Source: Stegostoma tigrinum (lineage: Eukaryota). From it: a DNA stretch of 64,000 nt. Positions 2,316-60,851 of the stretch are shown here, piece by piece; position 1 is the first letter of the stretch; each line of letters opens with the position of its first letter. Below the pieces are notes generated by a model. It did not search any database, had not been told where the DNA came from, and was given only the letters and a program-made list of their open reading frames with translations. The DNA is taken from the NCBI RefSeq assembly GCF_030684315.1, contig NC_081357.1, forward strand, positions 42,767,517-42,831,516. The letters run 5' to 3'. A program made the translations under genes and the position numbers.

Positions 2316-2504
2316 AAGATAACAAAGTGTGGAGCTAGATGAACACAGCAGGCCAAGCAGCATCTCAGGAGCACAAAAGCTGACGTTTCGGGCCTAGACC
2401 CTTCATCAGAGAGGGTGCTCCTGAGATGCTGCTTGGCCTGCTGTGTTCATCTAGCTCCACACTTTGTTATCTTGGATTCTCTAGCATCTGCAGTTCCCAT
2501 TATC
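2316..2504. mobile_element. Palindromic non-autonomous PLE-end element (family A)
   Basis: Inverted PLE 3' ends; 15-bp TSD ACCTTAAACTGTAAT at 2301-2315 and 2505-2519. Confidence 0.9.
2382..2409 (-). ncRNA. Minimal type-I hammerhead ribozyme motif
   Basis: CTGATGA-AGGG-TCTAGG-CCC-GAAA-CGTC on the minus strand. Confidence 0.75.
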
Positions 2505-3344
2505 ACCTTAAACTGTAATGCTCGTTTTTCCCATGTTTAGCAATGAGGCCTCATTTTGATAAAGGGTTTGCAATAGGAATGACAGCCCAAAGGCCTGATT
2601 GACCTTTAAAATACCTGGTAGCACTCATTAAAAGAAGTGACACCATATAAGCCCCTCCTTCAGAACAGTGACCAATTGTTTAGGATTAAGTGTGGCTTTT
2701 ATGTCAATGTCAAGAGTTACTTCATACCACTAAAAGAGATAATCATTATTTCATATTCCTTTGCAACTGAAGCTATGAAGTTGACATTTAATACAACAGG
2801 GGACTTTCTGAGAGCTTGTGATATTACCAACACTCAAGCAACCATTAGACATTAATTATCTGAAGACCTCACCAAGCAATTACTAGGTCAACGGACCACT
2901 AACATCATAAGGGTTTCCTTTTGGGTTGATAAAGACCATTCATAAGACTAGGCAGAGTAGCACCAGAAACAGCAGGAGAGAGGAAAGCAAAGTGGTGGTA
3001 TCCTTCTCTACTGCGGGTGCAGGAGTAAACTCTGTTAGAAATTCTTGTGTCACATCAGAGAAACTATGTGCTTGTTCCCTCAGTTTCTGAACCATTCTGC
3101 CACGTACTTTTGTGTACCAGCCAGCATAGACCACTCCATCAGTGGAAGTGACTGGAAGCAACAAATCTATACTGCTGTACAAAAGTTGCACCTAATCATT
3201 GAAATGCTGAGCCTTTAGATGTCTGTTTAGCACCACCAACTAGTTCAAGTTATGCTAATCAGCACAACAAATAAGATTATGTACCACATTGAGGCTTTGA
3301 AACAAATGTATTCTATTAGCACTGTACCCATTTAGCACTTCACT

Positions 3345-3470
3345 AACAACTGAAGAAGGAGCAAGGCTCCAAAAGCTTGTGTTTTCAATTAAACCTGTTG
3401 GACTATGACCTGGTGTCATGTGATTTCTGACCTTGTCCACACTAGTCCAACACCGACATCTGCACATCAT
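3345..3470 (+). mobile_element. PLE 3' end (family D) with decayed hammerhead
   Basis: CTGAAGA-AGGAGC-AAG-GCTCC-(A)AAA-GCTT at 3350-3378, followed by aattaaacctgttggactat. Confidence 0.6.
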
Positions 3471-3595
3471 AGAACATAGAACATTACAGCGCAGTACAGG
3501 CCCTTTGGCCCTCAATGTTGCACCGATCTGTGAAACCAATCTGAAGCCCATTTCACCTACACTGTTCCATTATCATCCATATGTTTATCCATTCA
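3470..3595 (-). mobile_element. HER1/CR1 3' tail fragment
   Basis: (agaacat)n tail and cagtacaggccctttggccc, matching the 3' end of the CR1 at 33985. Confidence 0.75.
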
Positions 3596-4221
3596 CCATT
3601 CAGCCAAAATGGCTACTGAGTTACAAGAAACCCTTGCTGAATGAATTGGAATCATTATCCTGAAATACACTACTTGCTACCCACTGTAGACCAAAGTTAT
3701 AGAGCAAAGCATAATTAGAATTATTATCATTGTCAGAAAACTGTTTTGACTATTTTTCATGTAACTTCTGCCTTCTATTATATGACAGACCTTCCCATTT
3801 ATTCTTTACTGCCCTTCCCTTTTCTATGCTCGTTGAAGGCAGAGCAGCAAAGTAACTAAGTCTGAACTTTGTAAAGTTTTATGAATGGAGAACATCATTT
3901 CAAACGAATACATTTCACTGAGCACTGAAGCAAAAAACAGCCCTACTTTTAAAATAGTGTTTGTTCTTGGCTTATTCCTCATGTCCAGAACATGGTAAAC
4001 AACATTAGTGTAAGGCAAACTTTGTTTGAATCTTGACAGAAAACACAAGTCAATCAAGATTGGAACATCAACCAGCAACGCAAATGACGCATTTAACTTT
4101 CTACATAGATTGGTTAAATATGCATCCTGGTACATGATCATCTAAAACGCACTCTATAATGTGTTCCTTCAATACTGTGTTAAGTTCTAAATCAACAAGA
4201 AAAGCTGTGGGGATAATTCAG

Positions 4222-4410
4222 GGATAATGGGAACTGCAGATGCTGGAGAATCCAAGATAATAAAATGTGAGGCTGGATGACCACAGCAGGCCCAGCAGCA
4301 TCTCCCCATCCCCCTCTCTGATGAAGGGTCTAGGCCCGAAATGTCAGCTTTTGTGCTCCTGAGATGCTGCTGGGCCTGCTGTGTTCATCCAGTCTCACAT
4401 TTTATTATCT
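4222..4410. mobile_element. Palindromic PLE-end element (family A)
   Basis: Inverted arms; TSD GGGATAATTCAGGG at 4210-4223 and 4411-4424; hammerhead at 4318-4345(+). Confidence 0.9.
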
Positions 4411-4649: not shown

Positions 4650-7600
4650 AACAGGAATCAGAAGGAGGCTAGACACCGCAGGACTGAGGGTATGATACTT
4701 AAATTCATAAGTATACAAAACAAGGTAAAGATGGAAATTAGCAGGTATGTTGTTGTGGGTATCACAGATACGTGGCTGCAAGGGCTGGAAACCAAATATC
4801 CAAGGACTTGCATCCTATTGAAAGGATAGGCAGATGATCAGGAAGGGGGGACAGGGGTTGCCTTGTTAGTAAGAGAGGAAATTAAATCAATAGCAAGTGG
4901 TGAAATGGAGTCAGAAGGCATTGAATTTGTGGGATAATAAAGTGTGGAGCTATATGAACACAGCAGGCCAAGCAGCATCTTAGGAGCACGGAAGCTGACG
5001 TTTTGGGCCTAGACCCTTCATCAGAGAGGGGGATGGGGAGAGGGTACTGGGATAAATAGGGAGAGAGGGGGAGGCAGACCGACGATGGAGAGAAAAGAAG
5101 ATAGGTGGAGAGGAGAGTATAGGTGGGGAAGTAGGGAGGGGATAGGTCAGTCCAGGGAAGATGGACAGGTCAAGGAGGTGGGATGAGGTTAGTAGGTAGG
5201 AAATGGAGGTGCGGCTTGGGGTGGGAGGAAGGGATGGGTGAGATGAAGAACAGGTTAGGGAGGCAGAGACAGGCTGGGCTGGTTTTGGGATGCAGTGGGG
5301 GGAGGGGAAGAGCTGGGCTGGTTGTGTGGTGCAGTGGGGGGAGGGGATGAACTGGGCTGGTTTTGGGATGTGGTGGGGGAAGGGGAGATTGTGAAGTTGG
5401 TGAAGTCCACATTGATACCATTGGGCTGCAGGGTTCCCAAGCGGGAATATGAGTTGCTGTTCCTGCAACCTTCGGGTGGCATCATTGTGGCACTGCAGGA
5501 GGCCCATGATGGACATGTCATCTAAAGAATGGGAGGGGGATTGGAAATGGTTTGCGACTGGGAGGTGCAGTTGTTTATTGCAAACCGAGCGGAGGTGTTC
5601 TGCAAAGCAGTCCCCAAGCCTCCACTCGGTTTCCCCAATGTAGAGGAAGCCACACCGGGTACAAAGGATACAGTATACCACATTGGCAGATGTGCAGGTG
5701 AACCTCTGCTTAATATGGAAAGTCATCTTGGGGCCTGGGATAGGGGTGAGGGAGGAGGTGTGGGGGCAAGTGTAGCACTTCCTGCGGTTGCAGGGGAAGG
5801 TGCCGGGTGTGGTGGGGTTGGAGGGCAGTGTGGAGCGAACAAGGGAGTCACGGAGAGAGCGGTCTCTCCGGAAAGCAGACAAGGGTGGGGATGGAAAAAT
5901 GTCTTGGGTGGTGGGGTCGGATTGTAGATGGCGGAAGTGTCGGAGGATGATGCGTTGTATCCGGAGGTTGGTGGGGTGGTGTGTGAGAATGAGGGGGTTC
6001 CTCTTTGGGTGGTTGTGGCGGGGGTGGGGTGTGAGGGATGTGTTGCGGGAAATGCGGGAGACGCGGTCAAGGGCGTTCTCGATCACTGTGAGGGGAAAGT
6101 TGCGGTCCTTGAAGAACTTGGACATCTGGGATGTGCGGGAGTGGAATGTCTTATCGTGCGAGCAGATGCGGCGGAGGCGGAGGAATTGGGAATAGGGGAT
6201 GGAATTTATGCAGGAGGGTGGGTGGGAGGAGGTGTATTCTAAGTAGCTGTGGGAGTCGGTGGGCTTGAAATGGACATCAGTTACAAGCTGGTTGCCTGAG
6301 ATGGAGACTGAGGTCTAGGAAGGTGAGGGATGTGTTGGAGATGGCCCAGTTGAACTTGAGGTTGGGGTGGAAGGTGTTGGTGAAGTGGATGAACTGTTCG
6401 AGCTCCTCTGGGGAGCAAGAGGCGGCACCGATACAGTCATCAATGTAACGGAGGAAGAGGTGGGGTTTGGGACCCGTGTAGGTGCGGAAGAGGGACTGTT
6501 CCATGTAACCTACAAAGAGGCAGGCATAGCTGGGGCCCATGCGGGTGCCCATGGCCAACCACTTTGTCTGTAGGAAGTGGGAGGAATCGAAAGAGAAGTT
6601 GTTGAGGGTGAGGACGAGTTCGGCTAGGCGGATGAAGGAGTCAGTGGAGGGGGACTGGTCGGGCCTACAGGACAGGAAGAAGCGGAGGGCCTTGAGGCCA
6701 TCTGCATGCGGAATACAGGTGTATAGGGACTGGAAATGAGGTGTTGGGGGCCAGGGAGTTGGAAGTTCTGGAGGAGGTGGTGGGTGTGGGTGGTGTCACG
6801 GACGTAGGTAGGGAGTTCCTGGACCAAAGTGGAGAAAATGGAGTTCAGATAGGTGGAGATGAGTTCGGTGGGGCAGGAGCAGGCTGAGACAATGGGTCGA
6901 CCAGGGCAGGCAGGTTTGTGGATTTTGGGAAGGAGATAGAAATGGGCTGTGCGGGTTTGGGGAATAATAAGGTTGAAGGCTGTGGGTGGGAGGTCCGCTG
7001 AGGTGATGAGGTCATGAATGGTGTTGGAGATGATGGTTTGGTGCTCGGGGGTGGAGTCATGATCAAGGGGGCGGTAGGAGGAGGTGTTGGAGAGTTGGCG
7101 TTTGGCCTCGGCGATGTAGAGGTCAGTGCACCATACTACCACTGTGCCACCCTTGTCTGTGGGTTTGATGGTGAGGTTGGGGTTCCCCCACCGCATCCCA
7201 AAACCAGCCCAGTTCTTCCCCTCCACCCACTGCATCCCAAAACCAGCCCAGCCTGTCTCTGCCTCCCTAACCTGTTCTTCCTCTCACCCATCCCTTCCTC
7301 CCACCCCAAGCTGCACCTCCATTTCCTACCTACTAACCTCATCCCACCTCCTTGACCTGTCCATCTTCCCTGGACTGACCTATCCCCTCCCTACTTCCCC
7401 ACCTATACTCTCCTCTCCACCTATCTTCTTTTCTCTCCATCTTCGATCTGCCTCCCCCTCTCTCCCTATTTATTCCAGAACCCTCACTCCATCCCCCTCT
7501 CTGATGAAGGGTCTAGGCCCAAAACGTCAGCTTTTGTGCTCCTGAGATGCTGCTTGGCCTGCTGTATTCATCCAGCTTCACACTTTATTATCTTGGATTC

Positions 7601-8700
7601 TCCAGCATCTGCAGTTCCCATTATCTTTGATTGAATTTGTAGAGTAGAGTTGAAGAACTACAATGGAAAAAAGACTCTGATGGGAGTTATGTACGGACTT
7701 TCCAGCAGTAGTCAGGATGCGGTGCAGAAAATAAATGAGGAGATAAAAAGAAAGGCATATAGGAAAGACACTGTCACAATAATCATGGTGGGCTTCAATG
7801 GTGGACTGGGAAAATCAGGTTGGTAGCGGATCTCAAGAAAAGGAATTTGTTGAATGTTTACAAGATTATTTTTGGAACAGTTTGTGGTAGACCCCACTAG
7901 GAAAGCGGCAATTCTGGATTTGGTGATGTGTTATGAGACAGATTTGATTAAGGAGTTTAAAGTGAAAGAACCCCTCCCAGAGAGTGACCATAATATGATA
8001 AGAGTTCACCCTGCGGCTTGAGAGGGAGAAGCTGGAATCAGATGCAACAGTATGACAATTGAGTAAAGGTATCAACAAAGAAATGAGAAAGGAGCTGGCT
8101 AAAGTTGTTTGAAAGTAGACCCTAACATGGAAGAAGGTGGAGTGGCAATGGCAGGAATTTCTAGGGCAATTTAAGAGGCATAACAGAAATTCATCTGGAG
8201 GAAGAAGAAGCACACGAATGAATGAGGCAACCATGGTGGGCAGGGTAATTCAGAGCAGTATAAACGTGAAAGGAAGAGCAGGCAATGTAGTGAAGATTAG
8301 TGGGAAGTCAAAGGGCAGGGAAGCCTCTGAAAGCCTGCAGAGGGTAACTGAAAAAGCAATAAGATACAAGAAGATGAAATATGACAGCAAGCTAGCTAGG
8401 AATATAAAAGAAGATTGCAAGAGATTTTTTTAGATAACTGGTAAGGGAGAGGCAAGAATGGACATTGGACCACTGGAAAATGAGTCTGGTGAAGTAATAC
8501 TGGGAACAAAGAAATGACAGAGCAACTGAATAGGTACTTAGCATCAGTTTTCACAGTGGGAGACACCAGCAGCAAACCAGAATTTTATGTGAGCCAGGAT
8601 GAGGAGGTAAGTATAGTGGCCATCACGAAGGAGAAAGCATTCAGGAAGCTGAAAGGTCCGAAGGTGGATAAATTACCCAGACCAGATGGACTACCCCACC
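4650..8700 (+). mobile_element. Degenerate CR1 LINE (endonuclease/linker region) interrupted by the PLE at 4931-7629
   Basis: APE-like remnants (gcaattctggatttggtgatgtg, agtgaccataatatgat); the LKVDKSPGPDG-like segment resumes after the insertion. Confidence 0.8.
4931..7629 (-). mobile_element. Penelope-like retroelement (Neptune-like, family A): 5'-truncated RT plus GIY-YIG, with an inverted copy of its 3' end (7184-7629, +)
   Basis: IKPTDKGG, FYLLPKIHK..PGRPIVS, AMGTRMGPSYA, LRYIDD, Cys linker CNRRKCYTC, NVVYCI..LYIGET; 11-bp TSD ATTGAATTTGT at 4920-4930 and 7630-7640. Confidence 0.93.
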
Positions 8701-10654: not shown

Positions 10655-13385
10655 TTATGAGGTGAGGTTGAGTAAATTGGTCTTGTACTCACTGGAATTT
10701 AGAATAATCAGGAGAGACCTTATTGAAAGAAAGGAATTCTTTGGGGGCTTGACTGGGTAATTTGAGGTGAGAGAGGCCAGGACCAGGGGTATGATCTCAG
10801 TGTAAAAGGTCATATATTTAAGGCAAAAAATGAAGGGAAATTTCTTCTCTCATCGAGTAGTTAATTTATGGGATTCTTTATCACAGGGAGCAGTGGAGGC
10901 TGGATCATTAGGATGGTATCAAATTGAGAGAAAAATCGTAAAAACACGTTAAAGATTAGTAGTAAACCAGAAGATTGGAGATATTTTAAAAGCCAAAAAG
11001 ATAATCAAAAATATAATGGAGGGAGAAGATAAACTTCATTGGTAAACTGGCGAGTAATATGAAATGGATAGTTGAGAGCTTCCTTAAATATATCTATAAA
11101 GGAAAATAGAATGATTCTTTTAAGTTGGTGAGGCAATCAGGGATTATGGGGAAATAACAGGAATGTAGAATTGAGGATTGTTTGATCAGCCATGATCTCA
11201 TTGATCTTCTGCTCCTATATCTTATGGATTTATGGTCTTATGGCAGCCTGTAGTCGCTGCACTTGGATTCCAGAAGGCAATTAACAGGATTACAAATCAA
11301 AAGTTATTGTACAAAGTGGGATTCCATGGTGCTGCGATGAACATATTACCAAGGATAGAAAAGTGGCTGTCTGTCAAGAAAAGAGTGGACATGAATGGGT
11401 CTTTTTCTGCTGTGATGTGTGGAGTTCCATGAGAGCCTGCTGTGGGTTCTTAGTGATTCTGGTAAAGGAAGCGATATTTACAGACAGATAGGTGGAAATT
11501 TAAATTGTGAAGTCATGAGGAAGTTGCAGACGGTGATAAATAGGTTAAGTGAGTGATCATGCTCCCATGAGAAGCTTGAACAGATCACCAACTTCGCTAA
11601 CACCTTTCACCCCAACTTCGAAATTCACCTGGACCAGCTCCGATATCTCCCTCCCCTTCCTGGACCTCTCCGTCTCTTTCTTTGGTAACCATCTCAGCAC
11701 TGAGATCTATTTCAAACCCACCGACTCCCACAGCTAACTTGACCACACCTCTTCTCACCCACCATCCTGCAAGAATGCAATCCCTCACTCCCAATTCCTC
11801 CGCCTCCACCACATCTGCTTCCAAAATGGAACATTCCATACCCGGACATCCTAGATGTCCTCCTACTTCAAGGACCTCAACATGCCCTTTCTGTTGATTG
11901 AAAATGCCCTTAACCACAACTCTTGCATTTCCCACACTTTTGCCCTCAAACCTCCTCCCACCAACAAAAGTAAGGACAGAGTCCCAATCGTCCTCATGTA
12001 GCACCCCACCCACCTCTGCATATCACTCTCTACCACTTTCACCATCTACAATCCAATTCCACCACCAAAGAGATATTTGTCTCACCACCCCTGTCTGCCT
12101 TTCATTGGGACCACTCACTCCACAATTCCCTCATCCGCTCCACACTCCCCACTACCCCCGGTACCAATCTCTGCAACCAGAGGAAGTGCTCTTACATATC
12201 TGACTGAGGTTCACCTGAACATCCTCCAACCTGGTCTATTCTATCTGTTGCTCCCAAAATGGCATCCCCCACATCCATGAGAGCAAGTGTAGATTTGGTG
12301 ACTGATTCGTGGAGCTCCTGCTCTCTGTATGCTGTAATCAGCAACGCTTTCCAGTTGTGAACCACTTTAACACCTGCACCCATTCTCTGGGTGACATGTC
12401 CATCCTGGGCCTCCTCCAGTGCTATATTGACTCCACTCGCAACTGGAGGAACAACACCACCTCAGTAGCCTACAGCCCTATGACGTGAACATAGAATTCA
12501 CCAGTTTCAAAATCACCCCACCTCCGGCCTCATCTTACATCCAACTGTCCCTCTCATCCTCGCCTCCTTGACCTGACATAATCCATCTATCTTCTTCCCC
12601 ACCTATCCGCCCACTCTTCTCACTGACCAATCCCCACTACCGCCTACCTGCATCCATCTATCACTATCCTACCTACCGTCCCTAAGCCCCACCCGTTCTC
12701 CCTCTATTTCCCAACCCAATATGTTGACTCTCCTGCTCCTCTGATGCTGCCTGACCTGCTGTGTTCCTCCAGCTCCACACTGTATCAGCTGAGTAAACAT
12801 CTGAGAGGGAGTACAAGGTGGGAATATTTGAAATAGGTTACCTTGACACGAAGAATGAAAGAGCAGAATTAGTTAAATTAAGAACAATTACAGGTGTTTT
12901 CCAACACACACACCACAAAATGTTAGCGGGGACGATACCTGGAATGAGCAAATTATTTTAAGAGGAAAAGATGGACAGACAAGGCTCATTTCTACTGGAA
13001 TTTAGTAGTGAAGGGTGACTTGATTAAAGCGTATAAGGTCCTAAGTGGTCTTGACAAGCTGTGGAAAGGAGGTTTCTTCTCATGGAGTGGCATTGTTTCA
13101 AAATTAGATGTCACCCTTTGAGGACAGGGATGAGGGCAATTTTTCCGAGTTTGCACCATTTTGGAAATCTGACTCAAAAGGCATTGAGGGTGGGGTCATT
13201 GAATATTTTTAAGACCACAATATATAGCTCCTTGTTAGGCAATGGGATCAAAAGGTTATGGGTCGGTGGTAGGTCCTGGGGGTTGGGCAGATGGGAATTT
13301 TGAATTCAGGACATAAACGGATCAGCCGTGATCATATTGAATGGCAAAGCAGGCCACTCCTGCATCTAATTGGTATATTTGTAGG
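10655..13385 (+). mobile_element. Cluster of old CR1 fragments interrupted by the PLE at 11552-12790
   Basis: CR1 3' motifs (ttgtactcactggaatttagaa, gaccttattgaaa, gatcagccatgatc); GFQKA..KLLYKV RT remnant. Confidence 0.7.
11552..12790 (+). mobile_element. Degenerate Penelope-like element (RT C-terminus, GIY-YIG, 3' end)
   Basis: KFTWTSSDISLPFLDLSV..YFKPTDSHS; homologous to 4931-7183; ends gatgctgcctgacctgctgtgttcctccagctccacac. Confidence 0.85.
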
Positions 13386-14446
13386 AATATGGTAGAGGTT
13401 ATGGCTTTGGAAGTTGATGATTCAGGAAACTTAGTGAAATTCAAGCGGATCTCCTGTTTATGTACAAAGATTAGATAAATTTTAGCCAAGGCATTTGAAG
13501 AATTTGGCTTCTATTTTTCAAACAGTACTGTCTTATCTTTTACAGCAGCTACACTTCAGCAACAGATGGATTGAAGCCAAGGAAGAGGTTGTGGCCAAGG
13601 CAGAGAAGGGTGATATTATGAAAATTAAAATCCACCTGGAATTCCCTCCCTAATGGCATGGTGGATATACCTACAGCACATGGACTGTAGCAGTTCAAGA
13701 TCAAGAAGGCAGCTCATCACTAACTTCTGAAGGGCAACTAGGGATGAGTAATAATGGTAGCCCAGCCAATGACACCCAAGTCCAACCAGTGAATTTGGAA
13801 AAGTAGGCAGCTTGCGTGATATTATAAGTTTCAGACTGTTTTTTTTTCAGGGAAACTGTGTTAATACTTACTCTCACCTAAAATCATGCAATCACACTTT
13901 CTAGTAATGGCTACCACAAAGGGCTCAGGATTAGAAATATTGTTTATTTCCCACTTGCCTGCCTCACAGTGTTAGGACAGTGAACCCTTCTGGTTTCGGG
14001 GGCATTTAGAAGCATATCAGCTTTTGTCACACGTTAGAACATTCCCTTTTAAGTATAATTCAAGCACCAAGTTGTAATCAAGTACCTAAATGCTTAGAAT
14101 TTAATGTTAGTTATTCAGCTGGAACCGTGGCATTGACTTTGTCGTACACTTAAGTCAAATGCACTTAATGTTATGGTGTAATCAATAAAACACGTGCAGA
14201 ATGAAACACGTCTGCATTTTGAATCAGGTGCGTGACCTTGGAACTGCACTTTCTCTTCAATGCAATTGTGTTAGAATATTTACTGCATGTTAATAGATAA
14301 TATGTGCATTTCCAAACCAAAGAAAGTAAGTGTTGAAAAAATTGCTGAGGAATCCAGGGAAGGAAAGCGGGAAAAAAAACTTATGGAATGAAAGCTTGTA
14401 TAGCATCAAGAGGAATCTTAAAAGACCTGAAGGACATACACAATGA

Positions 14447-15210
14447 GGTTCACCTGCACATCTGCCAATGTGGTATACTGCATCCGCTGTACCCGGTGTG
14501 GCTTCCTCTACATTGGGGAAACCAAGCGGAGGCTTGGGGACCGCTTTGCAGAACACCTCCGCTCAGTTCGCAACAAACAACTGCACCTCCCAGTCGCAAA
14601 CCATTTCCACTCCCCCTCCCATTCTCTTGATGACATGTCCATCATGGGCCTCCTGCACTGCCACAATGATGCCACCCGAAGGTTGCAGGAACAGCAACTC
14701 ATATTCCGCCTGGGAACCCTGCAGCCATATGGTATCAATGTGGACTTCACCAGTTTCAAAATCTCCCCTTCCCCCACTGCATCCCTAAACCAGCCCAGTT
14801 CATCCCCTCCCCCCACTGCACCACACAACCAGCCCAGCTCTTCCCCCCCACCCACTGCATCCCAAAACCAGTCCAACCTGTCTCTGCCTACCTAACCGGT
14901 TCTTCCTCTCACCCATCCCTTCCTCCCACCCCAAGCCGCACCCCCAGCTACCTACTAACCTCATCCCACCTCCTTGACCTGTCCGTCTTCCCTGGACTGA
15001 CCTATCCCCTCCCTACCTCCCCACCCACACCTTCTCCACCTATCTTCTTTACTCTCCATCTTCGGTCCGCCTCCCCCTCTCTCCCTATTTATTCCAGTTC
15101 CCTCCCCCCATCCCCCTCTCTGATGAAGGGTCTAGGCCCGAAACGTCAGCTTTTGTGCTCCTGAGATGCTGCTTGGCCTGCTGTGTTCATCCAGCCTCAC
15201 ATTTTATTAT
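14447..15210 (+). mobile_element. Young 5'-truncated PLE (family A): GIY-YIG, 3'UTR and hammerhead
   Basis: ORF 14443-14895 NVVYCIRCTRCGFLYIGETKRRLGDRFAEH; 12-bp TSD CATACACAATGA at 14435-14446 and 15211-15222. Confidence 0.93.
15120..15147 (+). ncRNA. Minimal hammerhead ribozyme motif (intact core)
   Basis: CTGATGA AGGG TCTAGG CCC GAAA CGTC; GUC cleavage triplet. Confidence 0.8.
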
Positions 15211-15429
15211 CATACACAATGATCACTGGTTCCCAGAACAGAAACACATAAGACACAGTTGCACTGTACAATTCACAATTAAGTGTTCAACAAACACATC
15301 TTAAAGACATTGGATGAAGGCTCATCAATCTAAAACGTTAATTCAGTTTCTCTTCTTGCAAGCTGGCTGAGAACTTTTAGCATTTTCTGTTTTTATTTTA
15401 GATCTCCACAAGCTTTTTTAAAAATTCAT

Positions 15430-15975
15430 TCATTAATGTGAGCATTAGTGAGCAGTAGGGCCAGCATTTATTGCCCAGAGTGTAGTTAAGAGTCAACGAC
15501 ATTGCTGTGGATCCGGAGTCACACGTAGACCAGGCCAGGTAAGGACAGCAGTTTCCTTCCTTAGAGAGCATTGGTGAGCCAGATGGGTTTTTACACCCAA
15601 ACATTGATAACAGTTTTACAGTCATCATTCGACTCTTAACTCCAGATTTCACAGAATTCAGTTTCCACTATCTGCTATTTCCATGGTGGAATTCAATCCC
15701 AGATACCCTGAACTATTAAAAACCAGAAGAACTGTAGAAGCTATAAATCAGGAACAAAAACAAAGTTGCCAGAAAAGCTCAGCAGGTCTGGCAGCATCTG
15801 TGAAGGGAAAAACAGAGTTAATGTTTTGGGTCTGGTTCTGAGGAAGGGTCATCGGACCCGAAACATTTAACTCTGTCTTTTTCCTTCACTGCTGCCAGAT
15901 CTGCTGAGCTTTTCCAGCAACTGGGTCTCTGTATTAATAGTTTCATGATAATATCACTAGGCCATCACCTCCTTA
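15430..15975 (-). mobile_element. tRNA-like SINE (second family) with a nested family-B PLE palindrome
   Basis: Homologous to 17850-18170, 56310-56640 and 63760-63945 (ccatctggttcactaatgtccttt..ggaaa domain). Confidence 0.6.
15720..15922. mobile_element. Palindromic PLE-end element (family B)
   Basis: Inverted arms aaaagctcagcaggtctggcagc / gctgccagatctgctgagctttt; CTGAGGAAGGGTCATCGGACCCGAAAC hammerhead-like core. Confidence 0.8.
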
Positions 15976-16112
15976 ATGCAATATTTTATTCTGTATCACA
16001 GCAAAAATGTCTTCAGCCAATTCTATCTACCCACATGATACACAGTATCAGCTGAGTGCACCAGGTCTTGTAAAGGCTATGGGCTGTGTTCATTGGGTGC
16101 CCATTCTTTTTG

Positions 16113-16950
16113 AATATGCTATTTCAACGAGCCACCACACACTGCAGCACAGAGGAACAACGAAGAGCAGAAGAAAATCACCTATACAGCGTATTCAAAA
16201 AGAACGGGTACCCAATGAACACAGTCCGCCGATTTCTCAGCAACAAACCCAAACAAACAGACAAAACGAGCTCAGAAACCATAACCACTCTCCCCTACAT
16301 CAAGGACATTTCCGAAATAACTGCCAGACTACTCAGACCTCTTGGCATCATTCTAGCCCACAAACCCACCAACACACTAAAACCGCAGCTAATGAACTTA
16401 AAAGACCCTATACAGACAACAAGCAAAACAAATGTCATTTACAAAATACCTTGCAAGAACTGTGACAAACACTACATTGGACAAGCAGGCAGAAAGCTAG
16501 CCACCAGGATACATGAACATCAACTAGCCACAAAACGACATGACCCACTATCACTAGTATCCTTACATACAGATGAGGAAGGACACCACTTTGATTGGGA
16601 CAACACATCCATCCTAGGACAAGCCAAACAGAGACATGCACGAGAATTCCTAGAAGCATGGCATTCCAACTGGAACTCCGTCAACAAACACATCGATTTG
16701 GAGCCCATCTACCATCCTCTGAGAAAAAGAACAGGAAATGACATCACCAATGCAGGAAATGACATTACCAACCTGAGGAAACCTAAACAGAAACAGAAAG
16801 CGGGACATAACACCAGCGCTTCACCGGAGGCTCACTGATGATGTTACCTAGAATGGTGATGAAACGTCTGAAAACTAACCTTCCAGCTCAGCGAGCAAAC
16901 TTACATCCAGAACCTCAACCTGAGCTACAAATCTTCTCAAAACTCACTGA
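16113..16950 (+). mobile_element. Penelope/Poseidon-type PLE (family C): RT thumb, GIY-YIG and 3' end
   Basis: ORF 16086-16838: VFKKNGYP, TLPYIKDISE, NVIYKIPCKNCDKHYIGQ..RIHEH, REFLEAWH; no Cys-rich linker. Confidence 0.92.
16835..16868 (+). ncRNA. Minimal hammerhead ribozyme motif (family C)
   Basis: tca-CTGATGA-T-GTTACC-TAGAAT-GGTGAT-GAAA-CGTC-tga. Confidence 0.75.
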
Positions 16951-19849: not shown

Positions 19850-19946
19850 TTTTCTGAAAGAGGGTCCAGACCTGAAATGTCAGCTTTCCTGCTCCTTTGA
19901 TGCTGCTTGGCTGCTGTGCTCATCCAGCTCTACGCCTTGCTATCTC
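19850..19946 (+). mobile_element. Single-arm PLE 3'-end insertion (family A, older)
   Basis: ctgaaagagggtccagacctgaaatgtcagc...; TSD TCTCAACAAAG at 19837-19847 and 19943-19953. Confidence 0.75.
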
Positions 19947-21004: not shown

Positions 21005-21845
21005 CATAGTCATAGAGTTGTACAGCATGGAAATAGACCCTTCAGTCCAACTTGTCATTGCCAACTAGATAGCCGAAATATATCCAGTCCCATTTGCCAA
21101 CATTTGTCCCATATCACACATGCCTTTTAATTGTTGTAATTGTACTAGCCTGCACCACTTCCTCTGGCAGCTGATTCCATACACACACCACCTTCTGCGA
21201 GAAAATATTGCCCCTTAATTCCCTTTTAAATTTTTCCCCTCTCACCGTAAACCTATGCCCCCTAGTTTTGGCCTCCTCTACCCTGGGGAAAAGACCTTGG
21301 CTATTCACTCCATCCATGCACCCCATGATTTTATAAGTCCCTATAAGCTTACCTCTCAGCCTCGGATGCTCTAAGGAAAATAGTCCCAACATATTCAGCC
21401 TCTTCCTTTAGCTCAACTCATCCAACCATGTAAATCTTTCCTGAACCCTTCCAAGTTTCACAACATCCTTCCTAAATCAGAGAGACCAGAATTAAAAGCA
21501 ATATTCTAAAATTAGCCTAACCAATGTTCTGTAAAGCCAAAACATGATCTCTCAACTCCTTTTCTCAATGCACTGAACAATAAAAGCAAGCATACCAAAT
21601 GTCTTCTTCACTATCCTATCTATCTGTGACTCCACTTTCAAGGAATCATGAACCTGCACTCCAAGTTCTCTTTGGTCAGCATTGCTCCCCAGGACCTTGC
21701 CATTAAGCATACAAGTCCTGCCCTGATTTGCCTTCCTGAAATGCAACACCTCGCATTTATCTAAATTAAACTCCATCTGCCACTCCTTGGCCCACTGTCC
21801 ATCTGATCAAGATCCCATTGTATACTGAAGTAACTTTCTTGACCG
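21005..21845 (-). mobile_element. HER1/CR1 LINE 3' fragment
   Basis: MEFNLDKCEVLHF, LGLFSLE..RLRG.LI, TRGHRF; (ctatga)n tail. Confidence 0.9.
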
Positions 21846-22089: not shown

Positions 22090-22960
22090 ATAAGGCAGGC
22101 CAGGTGACTGAGATGTCAGTGGGAGAGTGACCATAATTCTGTTGGTTCCAAAATGGTGATGGAAAAAGATAGACCGGATCCAAAAGTCAAAGTTCTAAAC
22201 TGGAAGAAAGCCAATTTTGATGGTATTAGGCAAGAACTTTCAAAAGTTGACTGGAGATGGATGATTACAGTCAAAGGTACAGTTGGAAAATGGGAAGCCT
22301 TCAAAAATGAGATAACTAGAGTCCAGAGACAGCATGTTCCTGTTAGGGTGAAGGGCAGGGTTGGTAGGAGTAGAGAATGCTGGATGACTAGACAAATTGA
22401 GATTTAGGTCAAGAAAAAGAAGGAAGTGTATGTCAGGTGTCGACAACAGAGATTGAGTGAATCCCTAGAAGTGTATAAATGCAGTAGGAATATACTTGAG
22501 AGGGGAATCAGGAGGGCAAAAAGCGACATGAGATAGCTTTGCCAAATAGGGTTAAGGAGAATTCAAAGGCATTCTACAAATACGTTAAGGACAAAATGGT
22601 AACTAGGGAAAGAATACGGCCCTTTAGAGATCAACAATACCACCTATGTATGTATCTCCAGGAGATGGGGGAGATATTAAACAACTATTTTCCATCAGTA
22701 TTTATTGTGGAGAAGGATATGGAAGATAGAGATCATGGGGTAATAAATGGTGCGTGTACGGAAAGAGCTGCCATTTGAAGTGGTACAGCCTGGTACAATT
22801 ACAACTTTAAAAAGGAATCTGGATGGTTATATGAATAAGAAAGATTCAGAGGGATGTGGCCAAATGCTGGCAAATAAAACTAGATTTATTTAAAATGTCT
22901 GGTCAGCATGGATAAGTTACATCAAAGAGTCTGTTTCTGTGCTGTATACTTCTAAGACTA
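22090..22960 (+). mobile_element. HER1/CR1 LINE fragment, internally deleted
   Basis: SDHN, LNWKKANFDGIRQELSKVDW, KENSKAFYKY, joined to the 3'UTR. Confidence 0.85.
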
Positions 22961-23772
22961 ATTCTGGATGATGTTTGACTGGGAGGGATCTTAAAGGTTG
23001 TGATATTCCCATGCATCTGCTGCCATTGTCCATCCAGATCGTAGAGGTCATTGGATTAGAAGGTGCTTTGGAAGGAAACTTGTTGAATTATTCCAGTAAA
23101 TCTTGATTACAGTACATGCTAATACAACTGTGTATTGATGTTGGAGACTGTGAATATTGAAGGTGTTAGATAGAAGGAAAATCAAGCAGACTGCTTTGTA
23201 TTTAATGCTGCTAAATGTCTTAAGTATTACTCTAGCTGCACTACTCCAAGTGTGTGTCCTTTTCACATTTATTCATTCGTGTGACAGTCATGGCTGGCTG
23301 CGCAGCATATATTGCCTACACCTAGTTGCCCTTGAGAAGTGGGTGGGGAGGTGCCTTCTTGACCTGCTACATTCCATATGCAGTAGGTTGACAGATAATG
23401 CCATTAGGGAGGGAATTCCAGGGTTTTGACGCAGCTAAAGTGAAGGAACAGCGATATATTTCAAAGTCGCGATGGTGAGTGACTTGGAGGGGAACTTGTA
23501 GTTGTGGTGTTCCCTTGTATATGTTGTCCTTTCCATCAACATGTATATGGTCATGGGCTTGGAAGGCGCTGGGAAAGTCTAAGGATTTTTGGTGAATTTC
23601 TGCAATGCATCTTTTGATAGTATGTGCTGCTGCTATTCAGCATCCTTGGTGGAGGCAGTGCTTATTTGTGGATAGAGTGCCAATTAAGTGGGCTGCTTTG
23701 CTGTGGATGGTGTCAAGCTTTATGAGTGTTGTTGGATCTGCACCTATCTCGGCAAGTGGGGAGTATTCCATT

Positions 23773-39929: not shown

Positions 39930-40210
39930 ATCATAGAATCACTACAGTGTGGAAGCAGGCTATACAGCCCATTGAGTCCATACCAACCCTCCCACCCAGA
40001 CCTACACCATCCCCACATTTTCCATGGCCAATCCACCTAGCCTGCAAATCTTTGGACTACAGGAGGAAACCAGAGCATCTGGAGGAAACCCACGCAGATA
40101 CAGGGACAATATACAAACTCCACAGGGACAGTCACTCAATGGTGAAATCAAACCCAAGTCCCTGGTGCTGTGAGACAACAGTGCTAACCACTGAGCCACT
40201 TGCCGTCCCA
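39930..40210 (-). mobile_element. HE1-type V-SINE
   Basis: A box TGGCTCAGTGG, V-domain, HER1 tail. Confidence 0.82.
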
Positions 40211-40459: not shown

Positions 40460-43400
40460 ATGCTTTATTCATTAAAACATCCTTATATGCACACATAGAG
40501 TGGTTTGATTCTATACGCAGTCTTAATATGCAGAACAAGCAGACCCAAGGCACTTCTTACCTATATGATATTGTATTTACATACATTTGAGGTGTTGGGA
40601 GGGTTGGATAACTGAATGGATCCCACTGTACTTTAGCAGAAAGACCTTAGAAAATTGTCTTTCGCCACAGCGCTTTGGCAACGCTCAGTCGAAGTCAACT
40701 CCTTGCTCTGGAAGGCCAACAAGTTACAAGCATATCAAAGAGCATCTTCAACAAGTTGATAGTCCTCCAGCTATTGTCTTGTTGTGAGTCCCAGGGAACT
40801 GCCCAGAAAGCACAGAGCCCTGTGTCATGGAGCTGCTCGACAAAAACCAGTGCACCTCTCTCCAGGCGTCCTTTGCAAGGCACATTCCGGAAGGAGATGT
40901 GTGACAGTCTCTGCACCCCACTGCCAACAGCCACTTCAAAGGCAATGTGCCATGGCATAGAGCATCTGGGCATATATGAACGATCTCACAAGTATTGCCC
41001 TTCTCACCACCAGCCAAAATAATGTCTGGTGCATGTTGGAAAGTTCCAGTGATGAAAGTTCTGGTCATTTCTGCTAAATGACTTTGACAGTCTGCAGAGG
41101 GAACCACCTGACAAGATCTACCCTCTCCTTTTCCCTCAGGGCCTCAAGGACACGACATGCTGACCACTTCCGGATGGGCTTGTGGTCAAAATTGTTTTTC
41201 TTTGCAAATTTCTGTACGATGGACAGGTGTTACAGAGCAGCCCGACTACTCAGAGCCTTCTGCAGTGCCGAAGCTAGTCCCATCCTTTACGAAACCTGGG
41301 ATAGGTAGAAACTCAGTACCTAGTGACTCTTAGCCTTTGTGTACTGAGGGTCTATGCACACCTTGATGCTGCCATGTACAAAGGTGGCGTCAGGATAAGG
41401 TTCAGTACATTCTTCATCCCCTTACTTAGTCTTTGTGTGCCGTTGCAGATATAGTCCATCTTAGACCTCCAGGTGAAGTGGAATATGGCCCGGATGACTA
41501 CAACGGTGCAGGTTCTGGGAATGGGCCAGATCTGCTCCACAGGCAATAAGAGAGAGAGTACCTCACACCTGATGATCAGGTTTTTAGTTGTAACAGGGAG
41601 GGAGCAGTGCTCCTAAAAGGCCACTTGCTGCCTCACCTTGGTGAAGCACTTGTCCCAACTTTGCTCGCATGCCCCAACCCTTCTGAACCGTATTCCCAGC
41701 ATCTCCAAGTAACTTGTCCTGGTGGTGAAGGGGGTAAACAATAAGTTGGCCAAGTTCCCAAAAACCATGGCCTTGCTCTTGCCTTGATTTACTTTGGCTC
41801 TCTGGGCCAAACTAGTCACAGAGATCATGAATCTGCATACTGACAGTGGATCTGAACAGAAAATGGTGATGACATCCATCCACGAGAAGACTTTGACCTG
41901 CATGCCTCCACTGCCAGGAATAGACACCCCTCTCAGGCTCACATCCTTCTTGGTGGACTCAGCACAAGGCCCTGTACAACAGACAAACAAGGCAGGAGAG
42001 AGTGGACAGCCCTGCCTGACTTTGGATCTGATCCAGAAGCTTTCTGATTCCCTCCCATTGATTAAGACTGCACTAATGATGTTGGTGTAGAGCAGTTGGA
42101 TCCTATTACAGAGTCGCTTCCCAAAGCCCATTTTGGACAGCAGGCCGCACATGTAAGTGTGCTATATTGTGTCAAAGGCCTCCTCCTGGTCCAGGCTGAT
42201 GAGGTCAGTGTCCAGCCATCTGTCCTGCGCATAGACGATCATATCCCTGAGGAACGCAATGTTCTCAGAGATCATCCTGCCTGGTATGGCACAGGTTTGG
42301 TTGGGATAAATCAACAATGCTAGAGCAGACTTGACTCGGTTAGCAATGACCATAGAGAGGCTTTTGTAATGTACATTCGGCAGTGAAATTGGTCGCCAAA
42401 TTCTAGCATCCTCCCTCTCTCCCTTCTGCTTGTGATGGTGCCTTTCCTCATGGATTTGCACATGTTACTTGCAAGAAACATACTTTTGCACGCCTCCAGC
42501 AGTCCTGGCCAACAAGTTCCACAGAACATAACACAATTTGGCCAGTACGCCATCACTCCAGGAGTTTTCAGAGATAATGGGAACTGCAGATGCTGGAGAA
42601 TCCAAGATAACAAAGATAAAAAGACCCAAGGGTCTAGGCCTGAAATGTCAGCTTTTGTGCTCCTAAGATGCTGCTTGGCATGCTGTGTTCATCCAGCTCC
42701 ACACTTTGTTATTTCAGGAGTTTTATTCTTTTCTAAGGACTTAAGGGCCGTGTTCAGCTCATCTAGAGATACAGCAGGTTCAGCCTCTCAGCTTGTCTAA
42801 GCCCTACATGATAGAGGGCAGGAACGATTGGGAGGCCATACTGGCTTCATGTCATATGGTCTGGCATAAAAGGATTTGCTGATCCCCAGGGTGTCAGACT
42901 GGGATGACAGTACTGAGCCAGCTTCTTCCTCTAGGCTGCTGATCATAGAGCTCTCCCTGTGCACCTTTTGGAAGAAGAAATGTAAGCATGTCGCATCCTG
43001 CTCTACGGTGCAGACCCTGGACTGGAAAATTATCTTGGGGGCCTCCGAGGTGAGGAACGAGGCTTGTTGCATGTTCAGCTCATGGGGATCCTCCGTGACA
43101 TCAAATGCCATCATCTGCAGCAGGAATAGGTTCTGCATTCTTTTCTTCCATTTGGACAGATGTCACCATCTCTCTCACTTGCTTCTGCACACCTTTGGAG
43201 ATGAAGAACCTGTTGATGTTGGCTTGACTGTTTCCCACCAGTCTGCTGGACATCCAAAGAGGAGCTTATGGTTCTCCAACCTGTGTAATTCCTTTTGAGT
43301 TCCTCAATGTTTTCTGGGGTTAACAGTTTCACATGCAGCTTCCACATCTCCTTGCTGGCCCACTGGTCATCCTGCATGTGACAGTTGGCCAGCAGGAGGC

Positions 43401-47893: not shown

Positions 47894-52419
<4,526 letters not shown>

Positions 52420-56401: not shown

Positions 56402-56609
56402 CAGAGATAATGAGAACTGCAGATGCTGGAGAATCCAAGATAACAAGGTGTAGAGCTGGATGAACACAGCAGGCCAAGCAGCATCTTAGAAGGAGGAAAG
56501 CTGACATTTTGGGCCTAGACCCTTCATCTATACCCGAAATGTCAGCTTTCCTGCTCCTAAGATGCTGCTTAGTCTGCTATGTTCATCCAGCTCCACACCT
56601 TGTTATCTT
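56402..56609. mobile_element. Palindromic PLE-end element (older family A variant) inside a SINE head (56310-56640)
   Basis: Inverted arms gataacaaggtgtagagctgg / ccagctccacaccttgttatc. Confidence 0.82.
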
Positions 56610-56982: not shown

Positions 56983-57325
56983 GGGCAGCATTGTGGCTCA
57001 GTGGTTAGCACTGCTGCCTCACAGCGCTAGGGACCTGGGTTCGATTCCACCCTCGGGCAACTGTCTATGTGGAGTTTGCACATTCTCCCTGTGTCTGTAT
57101 GCATTTCCTCCCATAGTGCAAAATGGCACATGTTAGGTGGATTGGCCACGCTAAATTGCCCATAGTGTCCAGGGATATGAAGGCTAGATGGGTTAGCCAT
57201 GGGATATGTGGCGTTAGAGGGATAAAGTATGGGGTTGGGTCTGGATGACATACTCTTTGGAGGGTCAGTGTGGACTAGATGGGCTGAATGGTCTGTTTCC
57301 ACTCTGTAGGGATTGTATGATTCTG
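56983..57325 (+). mobile_element. HE1-type V-SINE
   Basis: TGGCTCAGTGG A box, GGTTCGATTCC B box, V-domain gtggagtttgcacattctccc, HER1 tail. Confidence 0.88.
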
Positions 57326-57349
57326 GGCATGGGCAGAGAAAATAATCCA

Positions 57350-58720
57350 GATATTGGTGATGGGGAATAATGTTCAAGTCCATTATACAAGATGCGATAG
57401 GAGAACACTTGGAAAATAGTGACAGGATTATACAGAGCCAGCAAAGATTTATAAAAGGGACGTGGTACTTAACAAATCTGTGACAATTTTTTGGCAATAG
57501 ACTAATAGAATAGATAAGAGGAAACCAATAGCTGTGGTTTAATTGGATTTTACCAGGCTTTTGCTAAGGTTCCACGTAAGAGATTAGCATGTAAAGTTCA
57601 AGTGCATGGGCTTGGAGGCCAAATACTGAAATGGACTGAGAATTGGTTGGCGGAGAGGATGCAAAGATTATGAATAAACAAGTATTTTTTCTGAGTAGCA
57701 GGCCATGATTAGTGGGGTACTGCAAGGATCAGTGCTTGAACCCCAGCTATTCTCAATATGTATTAATGGTTTAGATGAGGCAATCAGGGCTATATCTCCA
57801 AGGCTGCAGAAGAAACAAAGCTGGGTGAAGTTATGCTGTGAGGAGGATGCAGAGAAGCTTCTCTGTGATTTGGACAAGTTAAGTAAGTGGGCAAATAGGT
57901 GGCAGGTGCAGCATAATGTGGACAGATGTGAGATTATCTATATTGGTAGCAAATACAGGCAAGCAGATTATTATCTGAGCGGTGACAAACTGGGGAAGGG
58001 GAAGGTGCAAAGAGACTGAGGCATCTTTGTGCTCCACTCATCGAAAATAAGCAGGCAGGTGCAGCAGGCAGTGAGAAAGGCAAGTGAGAAAGCCAAATGA
58101 TATGTTGGCCTTCATAGCAAGAGGCTTCAAGTACAGGGATAGCGATGTCTTGCTGCAACTGGCAGGGCATTGCTTAGACCACACCTGAATTATAGTATCC
58201 AGCTTTGGCCTCTTTGTCTGATGAATGATGTTCTGGCTATTGAGTGAGAGCAAAGTGGGTTTACCAGACTGATTCCTGGGATGGTAGCACTGCCAAGTGG
58301 GGAGGACTGGATCACTATAGTTTAGACGTCTGAGGAGCAATCTCTTAGAAACCCTGTAAAATTGTAGAAAGACTGGACAGGGTAGATGTAAGAATGATGT
58401 TCTCGGTGACTGGGAAGTCTGGAACCAGGGGTCACAGTCAAAGGATAAGGGGTAGGCTTTTTAGGTCAGAGATGAGGAGAAATTTCTTTACCCAGCAAGT
58501 GGGGAGCCTGTGGAAATCTCTGCTACAGAAAACTGTTGAGGCCAAAACATGGAAGATTTTCAAGACATTCTTAGGATTGAAGGGTTCAGAAGATGTGGGG
58601 AGATAACATGAACAGGATATTGAATTAAATGATCAGATATGATCATATTGAATGGTGATCTGGCTCTAAGTGCCAAATAGCCTACTCCTGTTCCTATATT
58701 CTGTGTCTTTATATCTTTGT
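57350..58720 (+). mobile_element. Degenerate CR1 LINE, RT to 3'UTR
   Basis: SGVLQGSVL, TRGHSQRIRGRLFRSEMRRNFFTQ. Confidence 0.88.
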
Positions 58721-60589
58721 TCTTGATCATGATCCTGCGGTTTGGTGTTGGAACTAAAGGCACGTAGATTTAGAGTGGGAACAAGATCGAACCTGTTTTT
58801 GACAACTGACAATGTTCATTTTCCACACTGTAAAAAGAAGGGCCATTTAATGAAGCTGTGGCATGGGTTTTGCTTTACCAAAACTTTACCCGAAGGTGAA
58901 CTATCATTTTCAGGAGAAAAAGCAAGAGGAGAAAAGATACCGAGAAATTTGAAGAAAAGAAAGATAATCTCTGAAACCCAAAATGAAATTACAACTTTGT
59001 AACATCTCATTTAGTAGTTAATCTTTTTACAATATATGCCATGGCATGTTTGATTTATTTACACTAGCATTGGGTGCCATGGGTACAGACTGTCATACTA
59101 TTCCATGTAATTGATGTGTGCTGACATTGACTATCCCCCGAAGGTTCATTGTCTACTCTTCACTAAATTGTGATGCACGCAAAGAAAATACAGAGCAGAA
59201 ACTTTTATTATGAAATGCTATTTCATTCAAGAAACTCTTTTGAATTTCTCTATATGATGGAGATGTCTATCTGCTAGTAAATCAAGATTAATTTCCAGAA
59301 AATAGCTCAGTACTAATCTTTCTAGTAACATTTTGTGGATTTTTCATTATCATCGTTAAGATCTCGACTACTGAGTTTTTGTTTCAAACTTGTTTTGTCC
59401 TCATTTTGATTTTAGCTTTTCACCAATTATTCTGTGCAAAATCTTTTGCTCCAATTTCAATTTTCTTGCATCAGATTCCAGCAACAGAAATCTCTTTGGA
59501 TGACTATTGATAATTCTTTATAATAATTCTTTACCTGTTCTGACATGTTTCCTTTAAAACAACTTTTATTAGGGAATGACAATAAATGCCAATGATGCTC
59601 ACATCCCCAGAGCATTTATATATTATATATAGTTTTTTTTTAAATGTCACATAATAAGCACATTAGAGAAAAGTAGTCATTAAAAATGAAACAAACTGCC
59701 CCTGATAAACTTCTCGGTTTTCCCTATGCACTAAAAGTATAATGCACCTACAACTGCTCCCTTTATTTTATTGTGTAACAGTCCAAACTGAAACAAGCTA
59801 ATACAGTAATGAATTAAAATAATTTTCTTTGAGAATTATCAAATTATACAGCATAGACTGACACCATAAATAGCCAACATATGTTTAACTGCTAAATACT
59901 GTTTTTATTGTCCATCATCACTGAGTGGAATCCAAACTCACCTGTATTTATCATACAGTGCTCACCTGCCTAGTTGCAATTCTACATTCAACAGTTTTCT
60001 GTGAAGTGTCCTTCATATAATACAGATTCTGCAACGTTTATATAGTTTCTTACTCTACATGCCAGATGTCCCTAGTAAGGATGCAACAAAATGACTCTGG
60101 GGTACTTGCTGTGTTTTATTAACAGTTCAGGATAAATTGAACTTTTTTAAAAAATGAACTAAACCCAGGAGAGGCTGTGGGCACAATTCTCTGGTCTACA
60201 ACAAAAAAAAAGTGTATTTAGATAGCACCTTTTGCATTAAAAAATTCCTGGCATGCTGCAGGGTTATAATTTTAAAAAGGTGCTATTCTGCCAATGTGTC
60301 ATACCATCAGAAAATATTTCTGGAATAGCCTTGAAGGACGACCCCTGTTGACCCCCTGTAAACCCAGTTCATATAGGTGAACTCAGGGTGAACTAATCCA
60401 TCAGTGAGGGCCTTAAACCATAGTTAGGTTCCTATTTGTGAGAGTATAGAGTGTGTTACTTATTTTGGGCATAGGCACTGGATACCAGTCTTCTTGCTTT
60501 CTTTAACGTGGTGGAGGGAGGACCTCTGGCATATCCACTAATGTGGAAACTTAGAGTGTGATCCAGAAATGGACATTATAAGAGAGGAT

Positions 60590-60851
60590 GAGAGATAATG
60601 GGAACTGCAGATGCTGGAGAATTCCAAGATAATAAAATGTGAGGCTGGATGAACACAGCAGGCCAAGCAGCATCTCAGGAGCACAAAAGCTGACGTTTCG
60701 GGCCTAGACCCTTCATCAGAGAGGGGGATGGGGAGAACCCTCACCCCATCCCCCTCTCTGATGAAGGGTCTAGGCCTGAAACGTCGGCTTTTGTGCTCCT
60801 GAGATGCTGCTTGGCCTGCTGTGTTCATCCAGCTCCACACTTTGTTATCTT
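60590..60851. mobile_element. Palindromic PLE-end element with hammerheads on both strands and non-identical arms
   Basis: 17-bp TSD ACATTATAAGAGAGGAT at 60573-60589 and 60852-60868; hammerheads at 60692-60719(-) and 60758-60785(+). Confidence 0.93.

Follow-up and report, generated by a model that had tools for sequence, protein, structure and literature searches.

Short palindromic inserts in a 64-kb window of the Stegostoma tigrinum genome as probable minimal products of Penelope-like element insertion

Palindromic inserts and their size range

The 64,000-nt stretch of the Stegostoma tigrinum genome analysed here (contig NC_081357.1, positions 42,767,517 to 42,831,516 of the forward strand; hereafter the window) carries a series of short palindromes made of two outward-facing 3' ends of Penelope-like elements (PLEs). 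The question raised by this locus is whether such palindromes are a mobile element in their own right or the by-products of another one. Our analysis shows that the palindromes are the shortest products of ordinary PLE insertion and not a separate mobile element, because a long two-armed insert and one-armed inserts form a size range with them. Each palindrome is probably one aborted insertion of an autonomous, endonuclease-bearing PLE with a linker of the Neptune/Nematis type. All counts refer to this single window, in which we recognised 11 two-armed inserts (10 of family A and one of family B) and five one-armed inserts.

The ten palindromes announced in the original prediction, made from the letters of the window alone (nine of family A and one of family B), were all found where they had been placed. 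They measure 145 to 262 bp each, roughly the 150 to 260 bp that had been given, and with a total of 1,971 bp they occur once per 6.4 kb, close to the one per 6 kb that had been stated. The palindromes are real and far above chance. Exact target site duplications (TSDs) of 10 to 17 bp surround seven of the nine family A palindromes, in agreement with what had been said of most copies, and the one at 27935 (inserts are named here by their first position) has an 11-bp TSD with one mismatch (search score 8). The same search run on 300 random position pairs gave a score of at least 9 in three pairs and of 10 in one, against scores of 10 to 17 for the seven exact TSDs, some of whose lengths take in 1 to 5 nt common to the element end. 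The AT fraction of the TSDs was 0.66 versus 0.57. The search found no TSD at 56402, and at the family B palindrome 15720 a 6-bp duplication only. In a pairwise comparison of centres none of the nine family A copies shared its centre with another, as expected if each palindrome is an independent insertion product. Empty paralogous sites were sought in the window for 14 inserts and one was found, for the family B insert 23776, which lies within an older repeat that is also present, free of the insert, at 198-413; none was found for the palindromes.

The inventory of the original prediction had missed a 2.7-kb insert (4933-7627) which contains remnants of reverse transcriptase (RT) and GIY-YIG endonuclease and has the same two-armed layout and TSD as the palindromes. 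It had also missed the five one-armed inserts (family A: 14447, 19853 and the older 11557; family B: 23776 and 23995), four of which have clear TSDs of 11 to 14 bp. No sign was seen of palindromes copied as units, and with these long and one-armed relatives forming a size range the proposal of a non-autonomous family could not be upheld.

The inserts are given below. Element positions take the C of the ribozyme's CTGATGA core as 0, and the predicted cut lies between +27 and +28. The junctions of 56402, 60590, 15720 and the long insert were read by eye and the others by script.

2316-2504, two-armed A: short-end arm 2316-2415 (minus; -6 to +93), tail arm 2415-2504 (plus; +35 to +124); TSD 15 bp (2301-2315 / 2505-2519); 1-nt junction overlap
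4222-4410, two-armed A: tail arm on the left (from +43), short-end arm on the right (-17 to +92); TSD 12-14 bp; 4-nt microhomology at the junction
4933-7627 (minus), long two-armed A: short-end arm of about 2.25 kb, 4933-7187 (minus), and 440-bp tail arm, 7188-7627 (plus); exact 11-bp TSD (4920-4930 / 7630-7640) enclosing both arms
11557-12787 (plus), older one-armed A-related PLE fragment: no tail; weak TSD, 11 bp with 2 mismatches
14447-15211 (plus), one-armed A: GIY-YIG remnant, intact minimal hammerhead motif at 15120-15147, no tail; exact 12-bp TSD (14435-14446 / 15211-15222)
15720-15925, two-armed B: tail arm on the left, tail-less arm on the right; 6-bp duplication
19853-19946 (plus), short one-armed A: -1 to +93, no tail; exact 11-bp TSD
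23776-23864 (plus), short one-armed B: no tail; TSD 14 bp with 1 mismatch
23995-25090 (plus), one-armed B of 1.1 kb: PLE open reading frame (ORF) remnant, no tail; TSD 14 bp with 1 mismatch
27935-28117, two-armed A of an older subfamily: short-end arm +7 to +90, tail arm from +28 (predicted ribozyme cut); blunt junction
29882-30114, two-armed A: tail arm -6 to +126, short-end arm -4 to +93; 1-nt centre insert; TSD 17 bp, 5 of them overlapping the element end
30198-30371, two-armed A: tail arm ends at +28, short-end arm +33 to +93; TSD 12 bp; 12-nt centre insert copied from the arm (+80 to +69)
36627-36808, two-armed A: the arms meet at +3 without a centre loop, overlapping by 2 nt; outer end of the tail-less arm at +62; 16-bp TSD with an overlap of 4 nt
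42569-42713, two-armed A: tail arm +82 to +127, 12-nt centre insert, short-end arm +6 to +90; TSD 10 bp
56402-56609, two-armed A of an older subfamily: tail arm +2 to +127, short-end arm about +17 to +93; no TSD found
60590-60851, two-armed A: tail arm -17 to +127, short-end arm -24 to +93; 3-nt junction overlap; TSD 17 bp
63947-64000 (minus), older A arm, tail end only: truncated by the edge of the window and not counted

Two pairs of inserts lie close together, hinting at local clustering: 23776 and 23995 (family B) are 130 bp apart inside one older repeat (23475-25308, with another copy at 2-615), and 29882 and 30198 are separated by only 83 bp.

The structure is the known PLE insertion type in minimal form. 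The available text of the cited papers describes the same head-to-head inverted 5'-truncated copies for Pen2a_Av and Pen2_Av of Adineta vaga (PMC3846280), where inverted pseudo-long terminal repeats (pLTRs) share a 9-10 bp TSD and one arm bears a 31-bp tail, as well as in the general scheme of inverted-pLTR PLE insertions (PMC8557442; PMC8969392) and for D. virilis Penelope with its large inverted terminal repeats (PMC2377424). Canonical endonuclease-bearing (EN+) PLEs likewise have a single TSD round the whole unit (9-10 bp there) and a tail of 30-40 nt at one end, whereas in the majority of the present inserts nothing separates the inverted arms and the length stays below 270 bp. In the portions of those papers available to us the tail is optional, inversion is ascribed to self-priming and no rule linking the tail to the second arm is stated; the available portions of PMC5753468 and PMC6431247 hold nothing on palindromic PLE copies.

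The parent element

The arm matches the 3' end of a longer RT/GIY-YIG element in the window, which confirms that the arms are outward-facing PLE 3' ends. A broken ORF at 4933-7187 (minus strand) contains RT, a CX4CX2C linker and GIY-YIG, with colinear tblastn matches over the region; in these remnants the Pfam match of the RT is below the cut-off (E 0.0014) and that of GIY-YIG is above it. The ORF remnant has 48 RT/GIY-YIG protein homologues, the closest named one being from Chiloscyllium punctatum (66-77% identity over three blocks), in keeping with a host among the cartilaginous fishes. A CX2-5CxxC linker between RT and endonuclease, which according to the available text of PMC8557442 marks Neptune or Nematis PLEs, occurs in the 4980-6314 frame and in 42 of the 48 homologues. 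Judged by its sequence, the parent of family A is an EN+ PLE, of the Neptune/Nematis type by its linker motif. Further EN+ PLE features are present: an RT followed by a C-terminal GIY-YIG with two cysteines between GIY and YIG, an optional tail of 30-40 nt, an inverted 5'-truncated copy, a TSD of variable length and, as a sequence motif, a hammerhead in the pLTR.

The minimal hammerhead motif was found 10 times in the window, nine of these in PLE ends of three families, with a mean of 0.02 in 100 shuffles. The family A motif has the core, the bulge, stem II and the palindromic 15.2-16.2 pair, as do the metazoan PLE minimal hammerheads described in the available part of PMC4209133. The same source reports that in Schistosoma pairs of minimal hammerhead ribozymes (HHRs) lie 100-700 bp apart on opposite strands. 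These are probably the same insert type as here; no TSDs, tails or junctions are described for them in that part of the paper, and helix I of family A has 2 bp. An Rfam scan of the window gave 16 matches, all below the gathering score and mostly microRNA models on hairpins, with no hammerhead family among them.

No full-length PLE copy was found in the window. A search for the arm as an ORF N-terminus gave weak blastx hints only (E 2 or worse), and a profile made from 12 of the 48 homologue N-termini had no significant match. A single arm folds no better than its shuffles (z 0.24), a translated palindrome had no match in the protein set, and the 24-nt arm pattern was absent from the bacterial and archaeal genomes and from the plasmids searched.

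A 39-bp tandem repeat (2.9 copies) is present in the family A 3' region at 5273-5386 and 14764-14875, and the inverted arm of the long insert starts within it. A third PLE family, C, was seen at 16081-16950, with its own minimal hammerhead motif (16835-16868) and no CX2-5CxxC linker visible in the remnant. At its 5' end 40 bp of internal ORF sequence recur in inverted orientation (16081-16120 versus 16188-16227), which resembles an inversion produced by internal priming; no TSD was found.

One tail per two-armed insert

The outer ends of the arms are fixed, as had been claimed, but they are of two kinds, with one of each per insert: a short end at about +90 to +93 and a tail end at about +124 to +128, both following a TTATC-like motif. 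Exactly one tail end was found in each of the 11 two-armed inserts (10 A and 1 B) and none in the five one-armed inserts (Fisher P = 2e-4), counts that leave out 63947, an old B-like arm at 63502 and the family C element; independent ends would give 11 out of 11 with a probability of at most 0.5^11 = 5e-4. The short end of the two-armed inserts is at the same position as the end of the one-armed inserts.

A comparable arrangement has been reported from in vitro work on PAc, a Poseidon element of Anolis carolinensis (PMC11167929). In the available text of that paper the PLE protein, a predicted dimer, nicks and extends both target strands, which are AT-rich, and RT starts at two sites whose spacing is that of the tail, with a hammerhead about 90-125 nt upstream of them. 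PAc belongs to the Penelope/Poseidon clade, whereas family A has the CX2-5CxxC linker of Neptune/Nematis, and inverted inserts are not discussed in the text available. The earlier proposal that both target strands prime near the RNA 3' end keeps its first half, since both-strand priming fits best, and probably needs amending in the second: RT would begin internally at two fixed sites separated by 34 nt, one per arm, as in the in vitro system. In the literature within our reach, outside which the older PLE reviews and the Repbase/Dfam notes lay, we found no statement of a one-tail rule, of arms of different haplotypes in one insert, of a pile-up of 5' ends or of short two-armed inserts as the main product.

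Two cDNAs probably joined at the centre

Several observations fit the end-to-end joining of two cDNAs, each primed separately, better than they fit the published self-priming. Of the 10 family A inserts, six have a tail-less arm that extends further upstream than its partner (the difference being 7 nt to about 1,850 nt), in three it is the tail arm that does so, and one is a tie; in the six, each arm has sequence that the other lacks. The insert 36627 has no loop at all, both its arms ending at +3 in a self-complementary 2-nt overlap. In 60590 the tail arm shows no non-CpG difference from the arms of 29882 (0 of 93-95 positions) and six differences from its own partner (6/106), which in turn differs from 2316 at 2 of 95 positions; the two arms of 60590 differ at all four linked sites, the partner carrying the haplotype of 2316 and 42569.

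The microhomology test covered the five short family A junctions without filler, the four filler junctions, the long insert and B being left out. Microhomologies of 1, 4, 0, 2 and 3 nt were obtained (chance of a sum of at least 10 = 0.005), and the four other family A junctions contain a filler of 1-12 nt. Within the window, the tabulation of arm ends, junctions, TSDs and microhomology called for at the outset gave unique centres, TSDs of 10-17 bp and 0-4 nt of microhomology, and the joining of two separately primed cDNAs at the centre remains the best-fitting mechanism in view of the non-nested arms, the zero-loop insert, the 60590 chimera and the microhomology. The centre filler of 42569 (42616-42633) includes 6 nt copied in antisense from +13 to +8, right next to where the other arm starts; it looks as though the cDNA of the tail arm had switched from +82 to the ribozyme stem and was joined only then.

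Early ends of the arms

The 5' ends were analysed for 22 family A arms, 20 from two-armed inserts and two from one-armed ones, 11557 being left out. Thirteen of them stop in a 42-nt zone, +17 to -24, at the minimal hammerhead, none in the next 290 nt, and three far upstream. This corresponds to 3.3 stops per 100 nt at risk in +17 to -24 and to 0 in -25 to -312, and a constant truncation hazard was rejected (0 of 10,000 simulations). Two of the 19 short arms, the tail arms of 27935 and 30198, end exactly at the +28 cut site (P about 0.01).

In the available parts of the literature, the promoter of D. virilis Penelope is internal to the pLTR with its start 46 nt before an intron (PMC2377424), the 3' end of that intron abuts the hammerhead (PMC4209133), and PAc activity requires RNA well beyond the tail (PMC11167929). 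We infer that the protein would load mainly at the 5' pLTR-ORF junction and that the transcript may begin just upstream of the ribozyme; most cDNAs would therefore run off within about 150 nt. We give such run-off at the template RNA's 5' end close to an even chance of being the cause of the early stops, and stalling of RT at the ribozyme or at a C-rich tract looks an equal alternative.

Proposed mechanism and its alternatives

We propose that an RT-GIY-YIG protein, to which the ORF remnant points, would introduce one nick into each target strand, with some 10-17 nt between them, the distance given by the observed TSDs. Each nick would then prime RT at one of two fixed sites on the pLTR RNA, at about +93 or about 34 nt further 3'; two ends are observed here and two start sites in vitro for PAc, and the 11 out of 11 rule suggests one site per strand. 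Most cDNAs would reach a length of 45-150 nt, their ends falling for the most part between +17 and -24 and in some cases at the predicted ribozyme cut (+28). The clustering is observed, and most likely the RNA begins there, at an internal pLTR promoter, or the hammerhead stalls RT. The cDNA 3' ends would be joined through 0-4 nt of microhomology or short templated filler, as seen at the junctions, and host repair would presumably make the second strands. Where the short-end primer alone is used a one-armed copy would result. The palindromes would thus be by-products and not a self-propagating unit. The nicking, the paired priming and the joining taken together are, in our judgement, quite likely, and the mechanism first put forward is probably right in outline.

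A stricter form of the proposal, which we advance tentatively and which has clearly less than an even chance, is that PLE integration is handed, the short site always serving the first or only cDNA and the tail site the second strand, so that a tail and an inverted pLTR would mark one event. The two cDNAs could then come from different RNAs, most running off at a nearby RNA 5' end inside the pLTR and some at the hammerhead cut.

Several points weigh against the two-primer mechanism. The numbers are small, with 11 two-armed inserts in one window, and 56402 and 15720 are without a convincing TSD. Helix I of the family A hammerhead is of 2 bp only. The old B-like arm (63502-63588, minus), for which no partner or TSD was found, may carry a partial tail; it is the sole possible exception to the end rule, and counting it against the rule gives a Fisher P of 1e-3. 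The tail-less arm of 36627 ends at +62 instead of +93, in a 4-nt overlap with the TSD, through either internal priming or later deletion. In most inserts the arms share a haplotype, and the arms of 4222 share a variant at +54 absent from all other arms, which fits one source RNA or locus and is also predicted by fold-back or conversion. There is a single clear haplotype chimera, for which ectopic gene conversion could also account. The 5' ends of paired arms lie within 7 nt in four of nine inserts, which is not significant (P = 0.052), and the coincidence with +28, spotted post hoc, has P = 0.10 at 1-nt tolerance. In the available text on PAc there was no start-site difference between strands and no RNA reads ended at the HHR cut site (PMC11167929).

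The published alternative is that one strand folds back on itself and is copied, after which the endonuclease resolves the hairpin and inserts it. In the available text self-priming of PLE inverted repeats is proposed on an antisense template (PMC3846280) and the tail is derived from endonuclease resolution (PMC8557442). The haplotype usually shared by the arms and the private variant of 4222 speak for it and the short junction microhomologies would fit fold-back priming equally well, but with a fixed resolution the tail should be found consistently on one of the two, either the longer arm or the shorter, contrary to the division of six, three and one tie. Nor could the zero-loop centre of 36627 be primed by fold-back, and the two haplotypes of 60590 and the coincidence of the short end with the end of one-armed inserts also oppose it, so that we regard it as unlikely. 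About equally unlikely is the idea that the palindromes were long two-armed inserts like 4933-7627 which later lost their middles by hairpin- or microhomology-driven deletion. Such a long insert does exist, microhomology and filler are compatible with repair, and microhomology-mediated deletions are reported in PLE copies (PMC3846280, available part). This idea does not predict the pile-up of ends at +17 to -24 with none in the next 290 nt, nor does it predict short one-armed copies that begin within the pile-up zone, as 19853 does at -1 and the family B insert 23776 in stem II, and near-perfect palindromes such as 29882 and 36627 would not relieve instability.

Amplification as a whole unit, by a DNA transposase or through an RNA of its own, would make the palindromes resemble miniature inverted-repeat transposable elements (MITEs) or retrozymes. 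They are indeed short, non-coding and dense, with inverted arms, TSDs and a hammerhead motif, and PLE-derived non-autonomous retrozymes have been described, in the text available, as short, non-coding, pLTR-derived elements with a type I hammerhead, also in a cartilaginous fish (10.64898/2026.07.22.740005). Those retrozymes are head-to-tail tandems amplified as units, whereas the inserts here have their arms head-to-head and no two share a centre. The eight Tandem Repeats Finder rows contain no tandem of the arm in head-to-tail order, and the array of units each with a hammerhead that defines non-LTR retrozymes is absent. The features of MITEs, namely a shared unit including its centre, symmetric terminal inverted repeats and a TSD of fixed length, are likewise not seen: one end extends about 34 nt beyond the other, the TSDs range from 10 to 17 bp, and long and one-armed relatives form a size range. 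We consider unit amplification very improbable, and short copies may still serve as RNA sources for new arms. Perfect short palindromes are also a known type of artefact of assembly or library fold-back. An artefact seems scarcely credible here, as the TSDs lie outside both arms, the arms differ by point changes including CpG decay and haplotype, the tail is on one side only and the same two outer ends recur at every locus.

The mechanism that we prefer, with two separately primed cDNAs, resembles L1 twin priming, in which the second target nick primes a second cDNA, joining uses microhomology and the inversion lies inside one TSD. In twin priming the internal site at which the second primer anneals varies and there is no overlap between the pieces; in the inserts described here the second start has a fixed position and the region copied is the same for both arms.

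Taken as a whole, this is a modest lead on an open step of PLE transposition. In the available text, the tandem and inverted structures of PLEs and their one-sided tail are an open question in PMC8557442, partly answered by PMC11167929. Short two-armed inserts give countable predictions, namely the tail per insert type, cross-haplotype pairs and end positions. Should the handed form of the proposal hold, cartilaginous-fish genomes would contain a very large natural record of such events, with perfect hairpin loci every few kb, and they would give evidence at the genome level that PLE RNA cut by the ribozyme undergoes reverse transcription in vivo. For annotation, such loci should be filed as truncated PLE inserts and not as MITEs or microRNA loci. 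The palindromes, at about 3% of the window, could give rise to a notable amount of long hairpin RNA, their folding energies being -35 to -226 kcal/mol.

Other repeats in the window

Remnants of RT-bearing long interspersed nuclear elements (LINEs) were identified at 34082-36572 and 825-1451 (Pfam RVT_1), and frames resembling LINE remnants at 25921-26403, 37978-38418 and 41613-42464. A dispersed repeat, possibly a short interspersed nuclear element, occurs in four diverged copies (70-76% identity) at 31989-32296, 40017-40199, 49556-49764 and 56983-57322. A 74-bp inverted pair with 80% identity (21117-21190 and 22748-22821, 1.6 kb apart) is unrelated to the PLE arms.

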